A stretch of 64,000 nucleotides of DNA from contig CAVFZO010000151.1 of NCBI GenBank assembly GCA_963626925.1, forward strand, positions 1,308-65,307, in the 5' to 3' direction. Positions 2,030 to 60,654 of this stretch are shown here, in pieces. The first letter of the stretch is position 1, and each line of letters starts with the position of its first letter. The stretch is from Clostridium sp. AM49-4BH. Its GTDB lineage: Bacteria > Spirochaetota > Spirochaetia > Sphaerochaetales > Sphaerochaetaceae. Below the pieces are notes generated by a model, which worked only from the letters and a program-made list of their open reading frames with translations, did not search any database and was not told the DNA's origin. A program made the translations under genes and the position numbers.

Positions 2030-2925
2030 TGACAGACATACTCGTCATAGGCTCGGGCCCCGCAGGAATGGCTGCAGGCCAGTACGGAGCACGTGCAGGT
2101 TATTCCGTGACCATAATCGACCCGATGGGTCCGGGGGGACAGCTTCTGTATATCGACGAAATCGAGAACTACCCCGGAGAGGAAAGCCTCTCGGGATACG
2201 TCCTGAGCGAGAAGATGGAGAAGCAGTGCTCTTCCTTCGGAGTGACTATCGAATACAAAAGGGCTCTCTCTTTAAGAAAGGAGAACAACATCTTCCATAC
2301 CCTGACAGATGAAGGCGAAATAGAGAGCAGGGCCGTGATCATCGCAACTGGAGCGGAGCACCGTCATCTCGGTGTCAGGGGCGAAGAGGAATACAGGGGA
2401 AAGGGAGTGAGCTACTGCGCAACCTGTGACGGCCCCTTCTTCCGCGGCCGCACTGTCGTAGTTGCCGGAGGTGGGGACACAGCACTTACAGACGCACTCT
2501 ATCTCTCGAAGCTCTGCTCCCGTGTCATAATCGTACACAGACGCTCATCCTTCCGTGCGCAGAAGGTTCTCCAGGACAGGGTAAAAGAGAGAGATAACAT
2601 CTCCCTCATAATGGAGGAGAACATCGCCGAGATCTCGGGAGACGGAAAGGAAGTGAAGTCCGTCGTTCTTACAAGCGGAAGAAAAATCGAGACTGACGGC
2701 GTCTTCGTATTCATCGGCATGACACCCTCCTCGGAGATTGCCGGAGAGCTGGCAGAGAGGGAGAACGGCTTCATCATAGTCGACAGCGGAGGCCGCACCT
2801 CCCTCCCCGGCCTCTTTGCGGCAGGCGATGTGACGACGACCTCATTCCGGCAGGTTGTGACAGCCGCAGCCGACGGCGCAAGAGCAAGTCACAGTGCAGA
2901 CGAATATATCCAGAGTCTGAATTAA
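2026..2925 (+). CDS. trxB: thioredoxin-disulfide reductase
   Basis: FAD motif VIGSGPAGMAAG, redox-active CATCDG and NADPH motif GGGDTAL. It overlaps tsaB by 4 nt. Confidence 0.9.
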   Translation: MMTDILVIGSGPAGMAAGQYGARAGYSVTIIDPMGPGGQLLYIDEIENYPGEESLSGYVLSEKMEKQCSSFGVTIEYKRALSLRKENNIFHTLTDEGEIESRAVIIATGAEHRHLGVRGEEEYRGKGVSYCATCDGPFFRGRTVVVAGGGDTALTDALYLSKLCSRVIIVHRRSSFRAQKVLQDRVKERDNISLIMEENIAEISGDGKEVKSVVLTSGRKIETDGVFVFIGMTPSSEIAGELAERENGFIIVDSGGRTSLPGLFAAGDVTTTSFRQVVTAAADGARASHSADEYIQSLN

Positions 2926-3010
2926 GAGCCGGGAGCTCTCATAGAATAAGGGGTGACAGGAGGTTTATAACCCGTCTGACACCCCTTTCTCATTCACAAC
3001 AGAAAGTCTC

Positions 3011-4117
3011 TCACTTAATACTGTTCGATGTGAGCTCGTAGTGCGTTACATCACTCCAGTGTCTTCTGAGAACGAAGTCCGCAGTGAGAGAGGTGTTGTC
3101 GTAGTCTATCGACCACTGTGTATTACTTGTGATATCTTCCGGATTCGGTTCCTGCGAAGCGGCGGTGAGAGCATCCCAGACAGTGCTGTCGCAGTAAGCA
3201 CCCTTCTGTTTCTCCATCACTTCGATGACAGCGTCATAGCGCTCCTTCCCGTGTCCGTATATATCGTTCTTCTGGTTCGGAAGAACCTTGTCGATATACA
3301 TTCCATAGAAGTTCGTTATGGCAGGCATCTTCGTTACGACCATCTCCCTGCCCTCGCTCTCGCAGTCATATTCGACGACCCTGCCGTCTCCGGAGGCATC
3401 CGTTATGTAGTAGTGATAGTCTCTTCCGCTTGTCGCAAACATATCGTAGGAGCGGAGAAGCTCGACGGCCTCCTCAGTCGTTGCTGCTCTGTCAAGCACG
3501 AGGCGGATGGCAATGGTAGGTGTGATGGACGGCTTACCCGTATCCTGGTTGACAGGCTTGCTGTCAAGCGTAAGTACCGCAATCGAGACACCCTTCTCGT
3601 TTATGCCGTCGAGGCAGATGAAGGGAGAAGTGAGAGTGGAGAGCTTCTCTTTGATACTCTTGTCGGGATTGTTGGCAGATGCGTTGCTGAGAGCAGCGAA
3701 ACCGACGGACTTGTAACCGTCCTTCGGCGTGCAGTAGACAAGCATTGCGGATGTGTCATTCTTGAAGTCGTAGTTGCGTCCCATATGGGCGTTGCCATCC
3801 GAATCGATAAGGCTGAAAGCCGTACATGCGAACTTCGGAGTCTCGACGGAGACGGGAAGAAGAGGGAGGCACTCCTTGAGTACCGCATTTGTCATATCCT
3901 GATCGGTCTCGATCCCGTAATTGATGACGTTCTCGATGCTGTAATCGAATTTGACATCCATACGGTAGAGATTATAGCCGTCATCGTAGTCGGTCAGCTT
4001 CTCTATGCTGTTGAGAGTCTGAAGCCTTGTATAGTAAATCCCGACAAAGACAGCTACTGCTATCACGAGCAGTGCAACAATACAAAGAATGATTATCACG
4101 ACTTTTTTCACCTGCAA
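3011..4117 (-). CDS. linear amide C-N hydrolase, choloylglycine hydrolase (Ntn) family, membrane-anchored
   Basis: An N-terminal TM helix (VVIIILCIVALLVIAVAVFVGIYY) is followed by the CTAFSL...GRNYDF signature of penicillin V acylase / bile salt hydrolase-type Ntn hydrolases. Confidence 0.65.
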   Translation of the reverse strand: MQVKKVVIIILCIVALLVIAVAVFVGIYYTRLQTLNSIEKLTDYDDGYNLYRMDVKFDYSIENVINYGIETDQDMTNAVLKECLPLLPVSVETPKFACTAFSLIDSDGNAHMGRNYDFKNDTSAMLVYCTPKDGYKSVGFAALSNASANNPDKSIKEKLSTLTSPFICLDGINEKGVSIAVLTLDSKPVNQDTGKPSITPTIAIRLVLDRAATTEEAVELLRSYDMFATSGRDYHYYITDASGDGRVVEYDCESEGREMVVTKMPAITNFYGMYIDKVLPNQKNDIYGHGKERYDAVIEVMEKQKGAYCDSTVWDALTAASQEPNPEDITSNTQWSIDYDNTSLTADFVLRRHWSDVTHYELTSNSIK

Positions 4118-9533: not shown

Positions 9534-9956
9534 TCAGCTTTTCTCCCTTCCCATTTCTATGAGGTCATCGACAGCAAGAGAAGGATCCATCGTATGGAAC
9601 ATCAGATAATTCCTTTTCATTGTCATGAAGTCAGCCTGACGGTATATTCTCGCGCTCTCTTCTTTTCTGTAATAGTGCCAATAACGGTAGATATACCCGA
9701 TCCAGTACATAACCTCCGGTCTGGCAGGATTCCCGGAATACGGAATTCTTCCCCCGCTTGAGTCGATAACCTCTTCTAAGAGATATTCCTCTCCGGCCCA
9801 CTGCATGCGGTTATAGACAGAATCGAGAGAGCGTGCGACATCCGATTTCATGAAGAATGAAACGAACGAAGCGCTGTCATATCCCTCTTTGGAGGACAAT
9901 TCAAAGAGACGCCCCTGGATGTCACATAATTTCAAGGAAATGCAGTCCATGATCAT
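9534..9956 (-). CDS. hypothetical protein, partner of the XRE-DUF3990 gene
   Basis: 140-aa ORF whose ATG overlaps the upstream stop (ATGA). It has an aromatic-rich segment, YWIGYIYRYWHYY. The N-terminal half is only vaguely DUF3791-like, so that is a weak guess. Confidence 0.55.
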   Translation of the reverse strand: MIMDCISLKLCDIQGRLFELSSKEGYDSASFVSFFMKSDVARSLDSVYNRMQWAGEEYLLEEVIDSSGGRIPYSGNPARPEVMYWIGYIYRYWHYYRKEESARIYRQADFMTMKRNYLMFHTMDPSLAVDDLIEMGREKS

Positions 9957-10822
9957 CCCTCCTCACCGTCACTCAGGATTTCATCAAAGAACCGGCCTTC
10001 TCTGCGATAATTCCTGCATATTTCATTAGCAGTCGAAACACCCTTTATACGATTGTTTTCACTTACGTCCTGAAGAAACTTCTTCTCCAGATAGGAGATC
10101 TCTAGTTCTTTTTCAACTCTGACCGCATTACAGCCGGCTGAAGAGACAGCTGCGTACTGCCTTCCAAGTTCAAGGGATGAGAGGCTTTTGACAAGAGCCA
10201 GATCCGTTATATTTCCCAGAAAGAAGTTGTCAAGCACATAGAACATACGGTCGTCGGCAATGCTGCCGATTATGAAATCCCTGTCTGTGCACATCCTGCG
10301 GTATTCATCAAAAAGTCTGCTTCCCATTATACCGTCCATCTTCCCGCGGTTATATGCAACAACCATCGCCCACGACAGATCGGGGGGAACTTCGAGACTG
10401 TTGAGCCCCTCTGTAGACACAGATACAATGTAGAATCTGGATTTTTCATAGCCGCTGATCAACGTCAGAGGCTGCATAGGGTCCGTCCCCATGTAAAATC
10501 CACGGCCGAAATCACACTGCCGGCGGCTGAGAGGAGCAATACGTCCTTCTATCCCGGACTTTGATCCGTGGTAGAGAATCACCCGGCCACCGTCAACGGA
10601 AATTCTCTCTGCTTCCTCCCTTATTCTCTGTATCAGCATGTCACATACAGGGATGTTCATCTCCCTGCAGAACTCATAGAGCATCTCCTGAGCCAGCCTC
10701 GCAGGCTTCGCTCTGTCATTCTCCCAGCGGTTGATTGTGGCGAAAGTCACTCCCAGTCTTTCGGCAAACTCCTCCTGGCTGAGCCCGACATAGTTCCGTA
10801 TATTCCTTATAAGTGTTTTCAT
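9953..10822 (-). CDS. XRE-family HTH fused to a DUF3990-like (PARP-like fold?) domain
   Basis: N-terminal HTH LSQEEFAERLGVTFATINRWENDRAKP. The C-terminal domain carries ILYHGSKS and GRGFYMGTD, the HGS / GFY motifs I associate with DUF3990. I chose the start at M8 (ATG 10822) behind a GAGG. Confidence 0.7.
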   Translation of the reverse strand: MKTLIRNIRNYVGLSQEEFAERLGVTFATINRWENDRAKPARLAQEMLYEFCREMNIPVCDMLIQRIREEAERISVDGGRVILYHGSKSGIEGRIAPLSRRQCDFGRGFYMGTDPMQPLTLISGYEKSRFYIVSVSTEGLNSLEVPPDLSWAMVVAYNRGKMDGIMGSRLFDEYRRMCTDRDFIIGSIADDRMFYVLDNFFLGNITDLALVKSLSSLELGRQYAAVSSAGCNAVRVEKELEISYLEKKFLQDVSENNRIKGVSTANEICRNYRREGRFFDEILSDGEEG

Positions 10823-10834
10823 TTCAGACCTCAA

Positions 10835-10876
10835 ATATAACATCTGCTATATGTTTTATTATATACTATGTTATAT
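10835..10876. promoter_or_regulatory. candidate operator: 9-bp perfect inverted repeat upstream of the XRE-DUF3990 gene
   Basis: ATATAACAT (10835-10843) and ATGTTATAT (10868-10876) are reverse complements separated by 24 bp in an AT-rich promoter region. An extra TATGTT copy lies at 10850-10855. Confidence 0.4.
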
Positions 10877-11184
10877 GAAAAGTTAAGGCTGACACTCTAT
10901 CATCCCTTTCTTATGTCGGACGTGAAGCGGCAGATGACTTATTTTCAGGGAATGATTGCCGGAAGTGAAAAATTCAGAGGCAGAACGAAATCCTTATGAA
11001 AATCCCTGATCTGTGCAGAATCAATCCGAATTCTTTTCAGGAGTGAGAACTGCGAGAGAAAGGGCCGAAGAAAAGCTGTGTATCCTCACCTCAGTCCTCC
11101 TGCTTATCCCCTGACTTTTGAAGATCTCAAAGGCATCCGGCACCTTTTTATCTTCAATACCCTTTCCGGCCTCAGTGAGTTCTT

Positions 11185-13366: not shown

Positions 13367-13432
13367 GACAAAAGTTTAAACCTTCAGCGTGTTTTTGTCT
13401 TGAAGATTTACCTCTCTTCCTGTAAATTCTAC

Positions 13433-13507
13433 CTGTCTAGGGGTGGCGTAATGCCTGAGAGATACCCTCGAACCTGATCCGGACAATGCCGGCGTAGGGA
13501 ACGACAG
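13433..13507 (+). promoter_or_regulatory. TPP (THI-box) riboswitch
   Basis: P1 helix CTGTC...GACAG enclosing GGGGTGGCGTAATGCCTGAGAGATACCCTCGAACCTGATCCGGACAATGCCGGCGTAGGGAA. This matches the conserved CUGAGA and ACCUGAUCNGGAUAAUGCCNGCG cores and lies 55 nt upstream of a thiamine-type binding protein. Confidence 0.9.
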
Positions 13508-13561
13508 CCTATTTCTTTATCAATTCCCGTTAGACAGAAAACAAATCAAGGAGGCTTTTCA

Positions 13562-16190: not shown

Positions 16191-17157
16191 AGCGAAGGAC
16201 ATAAAAAAGAAATACAGGGATTTCAACCTCGAGTGCTCACTTTCTGTAGAAAAGGGTGAGCTTGTCTGCCTCCTCGGCCCCTCGGGAAGCGGAAAGTCGA
16301 CGCTGCTCTCGCTCCTCAGCGGCATTGAAACGCCGGACGGAGGATCTGTTCTCCTTGACGGAGAAGATATTACCTCCCTTCCCGTCGGGAAGAGAGGAAT
16401 CGGCTTTGTCTTCCAGGACTACGCCCTCTTCAACTCCATGAATACCGAAAAGAACATCCAGTACGGGATGAAGACGAAGAAGAGAGACGAGAAGCGGCAG
16501 CTGACGAAAAGACTTTTAGAGAACGTCGGCCTTGAGGGCGCAGAGAAGAGGAAGGTCGAGACACTCTCGGGAGGAGAAGCTCAGAGAGTCGCCCTCGTGA
16601 GAGCCCTTGCGGCAGAGCCGCAGATACTCTTTCTCGACGAACCGCTCTCGTCCCTCGACGCCCCGCTGAGAAAGAAGCTCAGAGGCACAATAAGAACAAT
16701 ACACGACAGACTCGGAGTAACGATGCTCTACGTCACGCACGACAGAGAGGAGGCGTTCGCCATAGCCGACAGAATCATCATAATGAAGGACGGCCATATA
16801 GAGAGCACAGGCACACCCGAAGAGGTGTACAAGCATCCGAAAACTCTCTTCTCTGCATACTTCACCGGAGACGGAACATCCCTCTCTTCATCCCTTCTCT
16901 ACGGAGAAGGAGCCTCCGGAACCCTCTTCTTCCGTCCCGAAGCCGTCACGATAAGCGAAGAACCCCTCAACACGGGAGTGTATCCGAGCCATGTGATCTT
17001 CAATGAATGCAGTGTCGAATCAATCGAATACAAGGGAGAAGGTTACATGATAGGACTGAGTTTTCACGGAAACCCGTTAATCGCATTCTCACCACTGAAA
17101 CCCAAAAAGAAAGAAGTATCTTTAATGCTTCTGAAAGACAGCCTCATAAAACTTTGA
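16177..17157 (+). CDS. thiQ: ABC transporter ATP-binding protein (ThiQ/PotA-like)
   Basis: Walker A GPSGSGKST, signature LSGGEAQRVAL, Walker B LFLDEPLS. It overlaps the permease by 14 nt. The last ~100 nt are noticeably more AT-rich. Confidence 0.8.
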   Translation: MSYLEAKDIKKKYRDFNLECSLSVEKGELVCLLGPSGSGKSTLLSLLSGIETPDGGSVLLDGEDITSLPVGKRGIGFVFQDYALFNSMNTEKNIQYGMKTKKRDEKRQLTKRLLENVGLEGAEKRKVETLSGGEAQRVALVRALAAEPQILFLDEPLSSLDAPLRKKLRGTIRTIHDRLGVTMLYVTHDREEAFAIADRIIIMKDGHIESTGTPEEVYKHPKTLFSAYFTGDGTSLSSSLLYGEGASGTLFFRPEAVTISEEPLNTGVYPSHVIFNECSVESIEYKGEGYMIGLSFHGNPLIAFSPLKPKKKEVSLMLLKDSLIKL

Positions 17158-17178
17158 ATTGCCGCCACCCCAAAGCGT

Positions 17179-17547
17179 TCAATCACGCTTTTTATAATAA
17201 GAGTTCAAATCTCTGTCACTTTGAAGTTTATCCCAATTTGATATCGGCATATTCAGAGTCTTGCTTATTCCAGAAATAACCACATTCTTCAGCTTTTTTC
17301 TTCTTGAGGCCCCAATATGCTCGGAGAAAGTTATGTCTATGTCTTCAGAGAATCTTGATAACACGTGAAAGGCCTTTGACAATGATGTACCTCCTTTGAA
17401 GACAACATTGTCGCACTGCTGCGAAAGAAGTTTTAGAATCATAGTTGCGTAATAGTCTTTCTCGATGATATCTAAAGTTTGTCCAAGGCTTTCAGAAGCT
17501 GCAGACAATATTTCTTCAAAAACGTTTTTATCCTCGTGCAAAAACAT
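17179..17547 (-). pseudogene. truncated AbiEii/AbiGii-family nucleotidyltransferase toxin (N-terminal ~120 aa only)
   Basis: FKGGTSLSKAF and RFSEDIDITF nucleotidyltransferase motifs are present, but the ORF is 122 aa where this family is usually ~280-300 aa. It ends 21 nt from the thiQ stop. Confidence 0.65.
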
Positions 17548-18151
17548 TTGTTAACTCCAAATCGTAGATTGCTTTATATGTTCTAAGTGGATAACTTGGA
17601 AGAACACTATCCACCATTTTCTTTGAAATTTTATTCTGAAGAATGAAATATCTTAAGCACTCCGCTTTGTTTGTTTGTACCTCTGAAAGGTTTTCCATAT
17701 CTTTTAAAACTTCAAGAAGCATAACAGTTTTTACATTTTCCTGCGTTATTGGAACTGAAGCTCTTCTAATGATGTAATTGAAGCTGCCAATAGAAACTTC
17801 TCTTGTAATTGCTTTTGTATTGTTACTTATAATTTCTTTAACCCGGGGAACTTGATTCGACAAACCTATTATGTTTGCAAGGGTATGCCCGGAATAGCAG
17901 CCATAGTATTCGCGGTTGTCTGTAATATATTTCAGTTCCGCAACCTTGTCTGGGTTTGGAACGTAGGGAATTCCTGAAATTGTTTTCTTAGGGCGATAAT
18001 ATACACCATCCATATACCTGCAAACCCTGCCGCAATCTGCAAGCCCCTTGATTTGTTGGCAGAGGTTGTCATAGCTGATATTCAATTTTAAATTTTTCAG
18101 AAGAAACAATTCTCCCGGTTTGTAATTTTTATCAATGTATTCAATCAACAT
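17528..18151 (-). CDS. AbiEi-like (type IV TA) antitoxin / transcriptional regulator
   Basis: ~207-aa protein directly upstream of the AbiEii fragment, overlapping it by 20 nt. The region is very AT-rich. I chose the start at M20 (MLIEYIDKNY). The family call rests mainly on context. Confidence 0.5.
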   Translation of the reverse strand: MLIEYIDKNYKPGELFLLKNLKLNISYDNLCQQIKGLADCGRVCRYMDGVYYRPKKTISGIPYVPNPDKVAELKYITDNREYYGCYSGHTLANIIGLSNQVPRVKEIISNNTKAITREVSIGSFNYIIRRASVPITQENVKTVMLLEVLKDMENLSEVQTNKAECLRYFILQNKISKKMVDSVLPSYPLRTYKAIYDLELTNVFARG

Positions 18152-60570: not shown

Positions 60571-60654
60571 GGCGTGATGGCGGAATTGGTAGACGCAGTA
60601 GACTCAAAATCTGCCGGAGGCAACTCCTTGTGGGTTCGATTCCCACTCGCGCTA
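60571..60654 (+). tRNA. tRNA-Leu (anticodon CAA)
   Basis: Hand-folded: acceptor GGCGTGA/TCGCGCT (two G-U pairs), D arm GCG-GAATTGGTAGA-CGC, anticodon stem GTAGA/TCTGC with loop CTCAAAA, a long variable arm, and T arm GTGGG-TTCGATT-CCCAC. Confidence 0.85.

Follow-up and report, generated by a model that had tools for sequence, protein, structure and literature searches.

We analysed a window of 64,000 nucleotides from Clostridium sp. AM49-4BH (GTDB lineage Spirochaetota, Sphaerochaetaceae; contig CAVFZO010000151.1 of assembly GCA_963626925.1, positions 1,308 to 65,307) with regard to two adjacent genes on its reverse strand. Gene 1 encodes a fusion of an XRE-type helix-turn-helix (HTH) with a DUF3990 domain that resembles ADP-ribosyltransferases (ARTs), and gene 2 encodes a smaller, aromatic-rich protein related to DUF3791. 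The interpretation that we favour, and to which we give about an even chance, is that the pair forms a self-contained mobile cassette composed of a self-repressed ART-type toxin and its DUF3791-like cognate neutraliser. DNA binding and repression, use of NAD+, toxicity, a neutralising action of gene 2 and a role in phage defence are activities that we infer only, from comparisons of sequences and structure models. An initial annotation of this DNA had proposed a two-gene module of the toxin-antitoxin (TA) or anti-phage kind, a reading that the checks of motifs, fold and synteny all failed to refute. The locus is less novel than it implied: Pfam already lists DUF3990 among the ARTs and PADLOC already catalogues a two-gene system of this type (PDC-M42), and the locus is therefore a typical member of a known, uncharacterised family. 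The new findings are a conserved operator showing protein-DNA covariation, candidate catalytic residues common to the whole family, and a lineage that has naturally lost gene 1.

Gene 1 is predicted to encode 289 amino acids, one fewer than first annotated. The longest mechanical open reading frame (ORF) is of 296 aa (10843..9953), and the start was placed at ATG 10822, on which homologues and public gene calls agree and which has a GAGG ribosome-binding site (RBS) 8 nt upstream; ATG 10843 was rejected, as it lies inside an operator arm and the homologues begin at the MKTL position, none of them at 10843. Both annotated domains were recovered above cut-off in Pfam. HTH_3 covers residues 6-50 (E 3.9e-10), and DUF3990 (PF13151), the profile suggested for checking, covers residues 83-235 with 83.8 bits against a gathering cut-off of 32.2 (E 1.3e-23), spanning profile positions 2-150 of 152. 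The best named NCBIfam match of the HTH was the antitoxin-type MqsA family TIGR03830 (E 9e-10, under its cut-off), followed by NadS and HipB, while Foldseek matched this part of the protein with P22 c2, SinR and HigA2. Among diverse family members searched against Pfam, eight matched MqsA_antitoxin; the PHROGs search returned HTH families only and nothing further. The C-terminal extension with its YRREGxFFDEIL motif belongs to the long DUF3990 subfamily and is missing in the 160-aa canonical forms. The search for representatives covered query residues 2-209, in fused and stand-alone long forms alike.

Conservation of the ART-like motifs was evaluated in 113 diverse representatives (28-64% identity) and in 45 short (160-aa) canonical DUF3990 proteins. 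The two peptides initially quoted as PARP-like are present in gene 1, ILYHGSKSGIEGRI at residues 82-95 and GRGFYMGTD at residues 106-114, and the HGS / GxGFY signature that they carry is a family-wide feature: H85-G-S and D104-F-G-x-G-F-Y110 were at least 97% conserved in the two sets. The histidine, first numbered H93, is H85. It lies in ILYHGS on predicted strand 81-87 (motif 1 of the H-Y-[E/D/Q] clade), and Y110 lies in DFGRGFY on predicted strand 109-112 (motif 2, GxGxY); each of the two residues was kept in 112/113 and 45/45 proteins. Near-invariant positions in the 113 representatives were H85, G86, S87, D104, F105, G106, G108, F109, Y110, Y131, W151, R159, D182, G186, I188, A189, D190/D191, F200, Q222 and G276. 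A comparison of the 45 short with 39 long members gave a consistent set at 90% conservation or more, comprising H85, G86, S87, D104-F-G-x-G-F-Y110, W151, R159, D182, IADD 188-191 and Q222-Y223. The resulting family signature (LYHG[ST], DFGxGFY, W..R, D..G.IADD, QY) is complete in the window protein. In the full-length model, the loop between the HGS and DFGxGFY strands (residues ~94-102), where the conserved R100 and C103 are found, is the sole part with a predicted local distance difference test (pLDDT) score <50.

The catalytic glutamate of PARP and diphtheria toxin is located on the penultimate strand. For the third motif of gene 1, a glutamate had initially been looked for in DFIIGSIADD or FYVLDNF. 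The former stretch does hold the conserved D182, D190 and D191; in the latter, D198 is not conserved, though F200 is. Among the invariant residues, the candidates for motif 3 are D182 at the start of strand 183-188, D190/D191, and Q222, which sits on the penultimate predicted strand (219-225) and was absent from the initial candidates.

Evidence on the fold came from profile and structure comparisons. Pfam places DUF3990 in its ART clan (PMC7955679). Sub-threshold matches to PARP (PF00644) were obtained for 3/114 diverse members (best E 1.2e-4) and matches to ART-PolyVal for 3/114, and a canonical DUF3990 member matched ART-PolyVal over the N-terminal HG[ST]...GFY region. AlphaFold2 modelled full-length gene 1 with a pLDDT of 87 and a predicted template modelling score (pTM) of 0.85, and a domain-only model was made as well because the full-length Foldseek search was swamped by HTH matches. 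With these two models, four matches in the Protein Data Bank (PDB) stood above noise, three of them ARTs: the diphtheria-toxin homologue 7rb4 (probability 0.35 with the full-length model, then 0.69 domain-only), the ART domain of SAIP (9qe9; 0.30, then 0.33 domain-only) and PARP10 (0.25, full-length model only). The top match was 9k3a_B, a cyanophage pre-ejectosome protein (probability 0.90), for which its paper describes lytic domains and no ART. Matches in BFVD comprised one probable homologue (E 1.4e-8, TM 0.51), PolyVal ARTs (probability 0.87-0.96) and an iridovirus PARP-like protein. PDB sequence matches to HTH proteins, CroV588 repeats and neurexin were set aside as reflecting the HTH part or chance. 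The fold comparison thus gave ART matches above noise at modest scores and agrees with the Pfam clan; as TM-scores are low, we consider it supportive, not conclusive. Together, these results support the predicted assignment of DUF3990 to the ART superfamily, as a domain of H-Y-[E/D/Q] (PARP / diphtheria-toxin) type.

The perfect 9-bp inverted repeat that had been noticed in the promoter region, ATATAACAT/ATGTTATAT, brackets the TATAAT box and turned out to be a conserved operator. Exact ATAACA-N(25-26)-TGTTAT was present in 65/90 distinct homologous upstream regions of other organisms, against 0.1 expected from shuffles. In these 65 promoters the core spacing was exactly 26 nt in 62, a -10-like box lay between the arms in 61, and a TTGAC -35 element lay directly upstream in 62. 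The consensus of 62 aligned promoters reads ATTGACa-N5-TATAACAT-N4-TATAAT-N14-aTGTTATA. Ten of the other 25 promoters carried CTATCAT/ATGATAG-type or other variant arms, about nine differed by one mismatch, and about six had no recognisable pair; one locus displayed a compensatory arm pair (TATAGCAT/ATGCTATA). In a divergent subfamily the CTATCAT/ATGATAG arms occupy the same positions, and the recognition helix reads TTALSINRWEN instead of VTFATINRWEN. From operator conservation and the covariation of arms and recognition helix, the fused HTH is therefore predicted to bind the arms and to repress its own operon, a prediction with strong comparative evidence. The centre-to-centre arm spacing of 32 bp implies two HTH units on the same face of the DNA, three helical turns apart.

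Gene 2 had been annotated as a 140-aa partner with an ATGA start/stop overlap. This ORF exists (9956..9534, its ATG overlapping the gene 1 stop), but its first codon is probably not the start. In the 33 aligned gene 2 homologues the first residue corresponds to its third codon (MD...), public gene calls report a length of 138 aa, and GGAGG is spaced 7 nt from the second ATG (9950) downstream of it but 1 nt from the first; gene 2 therefore likely starts at ATG 9950. Its product is most likely of 138 aa, with a start 2 nt past the gene 1 stop, so that coupling would still be tight. Against PF12668 (DUF3791), the other profile suggested for checking, gene 2 scored 16.7 bits (E 0.007) in its C-terminal third and missed the gathering threshold of 25, but all of 34 aligned homologues matched it at E<=1 (best E 1.2e-7), and its C-terminal half aligned weakly with canonical DUF3791 in hhalign (probability 10.7%, E 0.003). 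We therefore regard gene 2 as a divergent relative of DUF3791 and not as a formal member. The idea that gene 2 might be a fusion of a PDC-M13C-like third small protein with DUF3791 was abandoned, as hhalign gave the N-terminal half a probability of 0.6%. Comparison with Pfam, NCBIfam and structure-database sequences detected no DNA-binding domain in gene 2. Residues ~9-62 (...YNRMQWAGEEYL...) align to residues 42-96 of a 'Sir2 superfamily protein' (8jkz, 8in8); at E 0.13 this likeness is not significant and was treated as noise.

Homologue searches retrieved 4718 clusters with gene 1 as query and 4004 with gene 2. Synteny was evaluated in 80 loci from different species genomes and metagenome contigs, 83 loci in all. 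A gene 2 homologue lay downstream of gene 1 in 82/83, and the lone exception is cut off by a contig end; the pairing of the two genes, on which the initial proposal depended, thus held in 82/82 informative loci, and an intact gene 1 without gene 2 was never seen among them. The gap between the genes was 5-30 nt in homologous loci, with one case of 76 nt, and long DUF3990 proteins without the HTH share the same downstream partner. The hosts are mainly Clostridia and further include Spirochaetia, Sphaerochaetaceae, Kiritimatiellae and bins of metagenome-assembled genomes labelled Bacteroidales, and the cassette flanks are unrelated between hosts, across phyla. As in type II TA systems, the genes form an adjacent, co-oriented and coupled pair that moves as a unit.

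Which of the two genes is toxin-like is suggested by a lineage that has lost gene 1. In this lineage (loci L115-L118, 3420-4411; at least 24 contigs) gene 1 is a pseudogene with a poly-A frameshift at codon 7 and an in-frame loss of ~99 codons (residues ~177-275, between two YRR motifs), a deletion that takes out D182, IADD and Q222. Gene 2 (136 aa) and the operator are intact. Destruction of gene 1 with retention of gene 2 resembles the loss of a toxin with its antitoxin retained, and speaks against a gene 1-dependent toxin role for gene 2. The cassette of one of these loci, L116, adjoins a type II-A CRISPR-Cas9 locus. DUF3990 further occurs as the variable C-terminal toxin tip of Rhs proteins of type VI secretion systems (T6SS) in Serratia and Enterobacter (PMC4524185, PMC10763514). 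The Rhs toxin tips, the lack of any gene 1 without gene 2 and the lineage with a broken gene 1 together favour gene 1 as the putative toxin.

In the mechanism that we propose, the HTH of gene 1 would bind the two TATAACAT arms, 32 bp apart from centre to centre, around the -10 box; as the arms bracket this box, the gene 1 protein would repress its own bicistronic operon. Gene 2, translationally coupled to gene 1, would act as the neutraliser that keeps the ART-like domain inactive. On a disturbance of this balance, for example by phage infection or by loss of the cassette, the ART-like domain would modify or deplete a cellular target with the help of NAD+, and growth would stop. The cassette may possibly act in abortive infection.

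Several observations weigh against this interpretation. No glutamate is conserved across the 113 diverse representatives and the 45 short DUF3990 proteins, and catalysis is therefore not assured. Fold matches are weak (TM ~0.3-0.5, PDB E-values >=1e-3), the domain-only AlphaFold2 model reached a pLDDT of 74, and no solved relative emerged from PDB sequence searches, whether with gene 1, with a profile of 114 DUF3990 members or with one of 41 canonical members. It is the toxin-like protein that bears the DNA-binding domain, whereas type II TA systems typically have it on the antitoxin, and half-sites 32 bp apart would be unusual for an XRE dimer. The loss of gene 1 in L115-L118 represents a single evolutionary event. 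The neighbours of the cassette in the window are housekeeping genes and not a defence island, the counts of defence genes beside the cassette in other genomes were made without a control set, and few sequenced phages, plasmids or IMG/VR contigs carry the family. Finally, the literature searched contained no experiment on any DUF3990 or DUF3791 protein, in line with the initial remark that DUF3990 has no experimentally defined function.

An alternative that we consider unlikely is that gene 1 encodes a non-toxic one-component regulator, in which a catalytically dead ART-like domain senses NAD+/ADP-ribose or another nucleotide and tunes the HTH, with the DUF3791-like protein as co-regulator. The reuse of an enzyme fold as a ligand sensor is known from NrtR-type regulators, the layout of an HTH followed by a ligand domain is standard, and both the lack of a conserved catalytic glutamate and the housekeeping neighbours in the window would suit a regulator. 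So would the model scores, as a pLDDT of 74 for the isolated domain versus 87 for the full protein hints that HTH and linker pack on the ART-like domain. Against such a role, conservation of a target is confined to the promoter of the cassette itself, and the flanks are unrelated between taxa. Moreover, the same domain with its invariant residues exists without the HTH and as an Rhs toxin tip, and the cassette has a distribution like that of a mobile element, often with defence genes adjacent.

It is likewise improbable, in our estimate, that the domain does not function as an ART, sharing only the ancient fold and either performing other chemistry (on another nucleotide, or as a Tpt1-like activity on RNA 2'-phosphate) or acting by binding alone. 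Consistent with this, matches to solved structures had TMq/TMt values of at most 0.34 and root-mean-square deviations of 9.5-13.4 A for the ARTs and 18.6 A for 9k3a_B, the PDB sequence profile searches were empty, and no residue can be assigned to the third catalytic position. However, apart from 9k3a_B with no described ART, the fold matches above noise go to ARTs, the Pfam matches just under threshold concern PARP and ART-PolyVal, with no other enzyme class among them, and the Pfam clan assignment concurs.

A reversed polarity resembling type VII TA systems, in which the DUF3791-like protein is the toxin and the HTH-DUF3990 protein acts as repressor and as antitoxin, by ADP-ribosylation or by binding, appears very unlikely. 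In most type II TA systems the antitoxin does carry the DNA-binding domain and comes first, and the HTH of gene 1 is nearest to those of MqsA-type antitoxins, with MqsA_antitoxin matches in the eight members mentioned above. Yet L115-L118 keep gene 2 with gene 1 broken, a state that cells would not survive if gene 2 acted as a toxin held in check by gene 1; in addition, DUF3990 serves as the delivered toxin domain of Rhs proteins, and canonical operons have the DUF3791 gene upstream, in the usual position of an antitoxin. We give as little credence to a design in which the fused HTH would tether an active H-Y-D/Q ART to DNA to modify the DNA, in the manner of DarT, or the transcription machinery at operator-like sites, with operator occupancy as off-switch and the partner as trigger or sensor; if true, this would be a defence module built on a DNA-guided ART whose catalytic centre is not a glutamate, and it would give the abundant gut and rumen DUF3990/DUF3791 systems a function for the first time.

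The toxin-neutraliser interpretation can be compared with several known systems. DarTG is a two-gene cassette of a small PARP-clade ART toxin and an adjacent neutraliser gene that acts in abortive infection; DarT (Pfam DUF4433) keeps the catalytic glutamate, has no fused HTH and modifies single-stranded DNA, and the DarG macrodomain removes the modification. The present cassette would share the layout of an ART toxin with a neutraliser, but it has no macrodomain or glycohydrolase, carries a fused HTH and lacks a conserved glutamate. Xre-RES, ParST and MbcTA combine an XRE-type HTH with an NAD+-using toxin of the ART superfamily in an autoregulated two-gene operon, where the HTH belongs to a distinct antitoxin protein and a RES domain serves as toxin; in the present cassette, by contrast, HTH and toxin-like domain are covalently joined in one protein, and no DNA-binding domain is recognisable in the partner. 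ART-PolyVal domains were the best named BFVD matches and gave the weak Pfam cross-matches described above, but they form part of giant multidomain proteins that mobile elements inject, and the sequence likeness remains under family thresholds. The tips of Serratia Rhs5 and Enterobacter RhsA belong to the same Pfam domain and show the same order of toxin first and small downstream gene (PMC4524185, PMC10763514). Unlike the present protein, which would be cytoplasmic, stand-alone and equipped with a repressor domain, they are delivered from cell to cell within a large Rhs protein.

Among catalogued defence candidates, PADLOC PDC-M42 is organised alike: its models describe a long DUF3990 protein (215 and 280 aa) and, after it, a partner of 138 aa. 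Along its full length gene 2 matched PDC-M42B with E 4.5e-9, and the match of gene 1 to PDC-M42A had E 3e-6, both judged by E-value and not by PADLOC's own score cut-offs; gene 1 scored higher against the DUF3990 models of PDC-M13 than against PDC-M42A. PADLOC PDC-x systems, PDC-M42 and PDC-M13 among them, are unpublished and unvalidated candidates (PMC11811056), and PDC-M42 stems from Payne et al., with no published phenotype. The canonical PDC-M13 operon shares the ART-like core, down to identical invariant residues, and likewise has a DUF3791-type module and tightly coupled, overlapping genes. It differs by having three genes, an upstream 74-aa DUF3791 protein, a 160-aa DUF3990 protein without HTH or C-terminal extension, and a third protein of 72-76 aa, whereas the DUF3791-like module of the present cassette is the C-terminal part of the downstream 138-aa protein. 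Such operons occur on Bacteroidales contigs (L108-L113, ~2780-3707) in the order DUF3791 (74 aa), DUF3990 (159-161 aa) and small ORF (72-76 aa), with overlaps of 4-8 nt, and in a further locus, L114, the downstream protein is a tandem duplication of the small third-gene module.

Cassettes of DUF3990 and DUF3791 are very common in gut and rumen bacteria; PDC-M13 is among the commonest systems in 6530 rumen genomes, with 3324 matches (PMC13356809). The present analysis provides an experimental handle on them, namely an operator with natural specificity variants, the residues H85, Y110, D182, D190/D191 and Q222, and a predicted polarity. If the prediction is true, a glutamate-less family of PARP-clade ART toxins and a rare layout in which the toxin bears the repressor would join the TA and defence repertoire.

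Features of the cassette and its promoter, listed in the direction of transcription (window positions)
Feature	Position	Strand	Basis
-35-like hexamer TTAACT (TTGACA in homologous promoters)	10881..10886	-	promoter scan, 62-promoter alignment
Upstream operator arm, ATATAACAT on the coding strand, within the 17-nt -35/-10 spacer	10868..10876	-	repeat search, homologous promoters
-10 box TATAAT, between the operator arms	10858..10863	-	promoter scan
Downstream operator arm, ATGTTATAT on the coding strand, between -10 box and RBS	10835..10843	-	repeat search, homologous promoters
Gene 1, XRE-HTH::DUF3990 fusion, 289 aa	9953..10822	-	stop 9955..9953, GAGG RBS 10832..10829
Gene 1 residues 1-75, XRE-type HTH and linker helix	10598..10822	-	Pfam HTH_3, NCBIfam, Foldseek
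Gene 1 residues 80-240, DUF3990 ART-like core	10103..10585	-	Pfam, residue conservation, structure matches
Codon of H85 in the core	10570..10568	-	checked against sequence
Codon of Y110 in the core	10495..10493	-	checked against sequence
Codon of D182 in the core	10279..10277	-	checked against sequence
Codons of D190-D191 in the core	10255..10250	-	checked against sequence
Codon of Q222 in the core	10159..10157	-	checked against sequence
Gene 1 residues 241-289, C-terminal helical extension, YRREGxFFDEIL motif	9956..10102	-	model secondary structure
Gene 2, aromatic-rich partner, 138 aa	9534..9950	-	second ATG, GGAGG 9962..9958, stop 9536..9534
DUF3791-like C-terminal module of gene 2, WIGYIYRYWHY...NYLMFHTMDP	9546..9701	-	PF12668 sub-threshold, homologues, hhalign

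In the window the cassette is bordered by a convergent alpha/beta-hydrolase gene and, upstream of gene 1 on the same strand, by a Nudix gene. Its GC content is ~0.46-0.50 versus 0.52-0.57 in the flanks, which is weak evidence for transfer. For an empty-site comparison, four contigs with an identical Nudix protein were available; three carry the cassette and the fourth ends too soon, and no insertion boundary was definable. Searches with tblastn of 50,697 phages and 72,556 plasmids gave HTH matches only, plus one DUF3990 on a Lactobacillus plasmid, and 15 IMG/VR contigs were matched, 11 of them from one metagenome. With so few matches, a phage or plasmid origin was set aside, and the cassette is taken as not primarily phage-borne.

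To survey neighbours elsewhere, 135 proteins directly beside the cassette in ~75 other genomes were evaluated. Fic/DOC proteins accounted for 8/135, 7 of them also matching PADLOC PDC-S04, which according to another study duplicates SoFic (PMC11811056). Methylases of type I restriction-modification systems followed (5/135, plus specificity subunits), then AAA_14/DUF4143 proteins (PADLOC PDC-S01; 4/135), DUF4238 proteins (3/135), and ADP-ribosylglycohydrolases and PLD-like proteins (2/135 each). These families fit a defence-island habit. At one of the two loci with an ADP-ribosylglycohydrolase (L035, 2054-3628, forward strand), the gene for the 524-aa protein of this family shares the cassette's strand and lies ~370 nt upstream of it; the two neighbours may be due to chance or may be linked to the reversal of ADP-ribosylation.

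Three further features of the window lie outside the cassette. A thiamine pyrophosphate (TPP) riboswitch (Rfam RF00059, 61.8 bits) is located at 13429-13518 on the forward strand, directly upstream of a gene for an ABC solute-binding protein (13562..), and the ABC transporter operon behind it presumably serves thiamine uptake. A tRNA gene (60571-60654, forward strand) is followed ~130 nt further on by a DUF3800-I RNA motif (RF02969; 60787-60907, forward strand; 50.3 bits versus a gathering score of 44.2), and the two might mark an integrated element. On the reverse strand at ~17122-18151 (corresponding to L084 2672-3701), an AbiEii-family ORF of 141 aa overlaps the end of a 207-aa ORF without Pfam match. 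As the AbiEii ORF is of 122 aa in sister contigs, it is probably truncated, and the two ORFs, ~6-7 kb from the cassette, may represent a decayed AbiE toxin-antitoxin pair.

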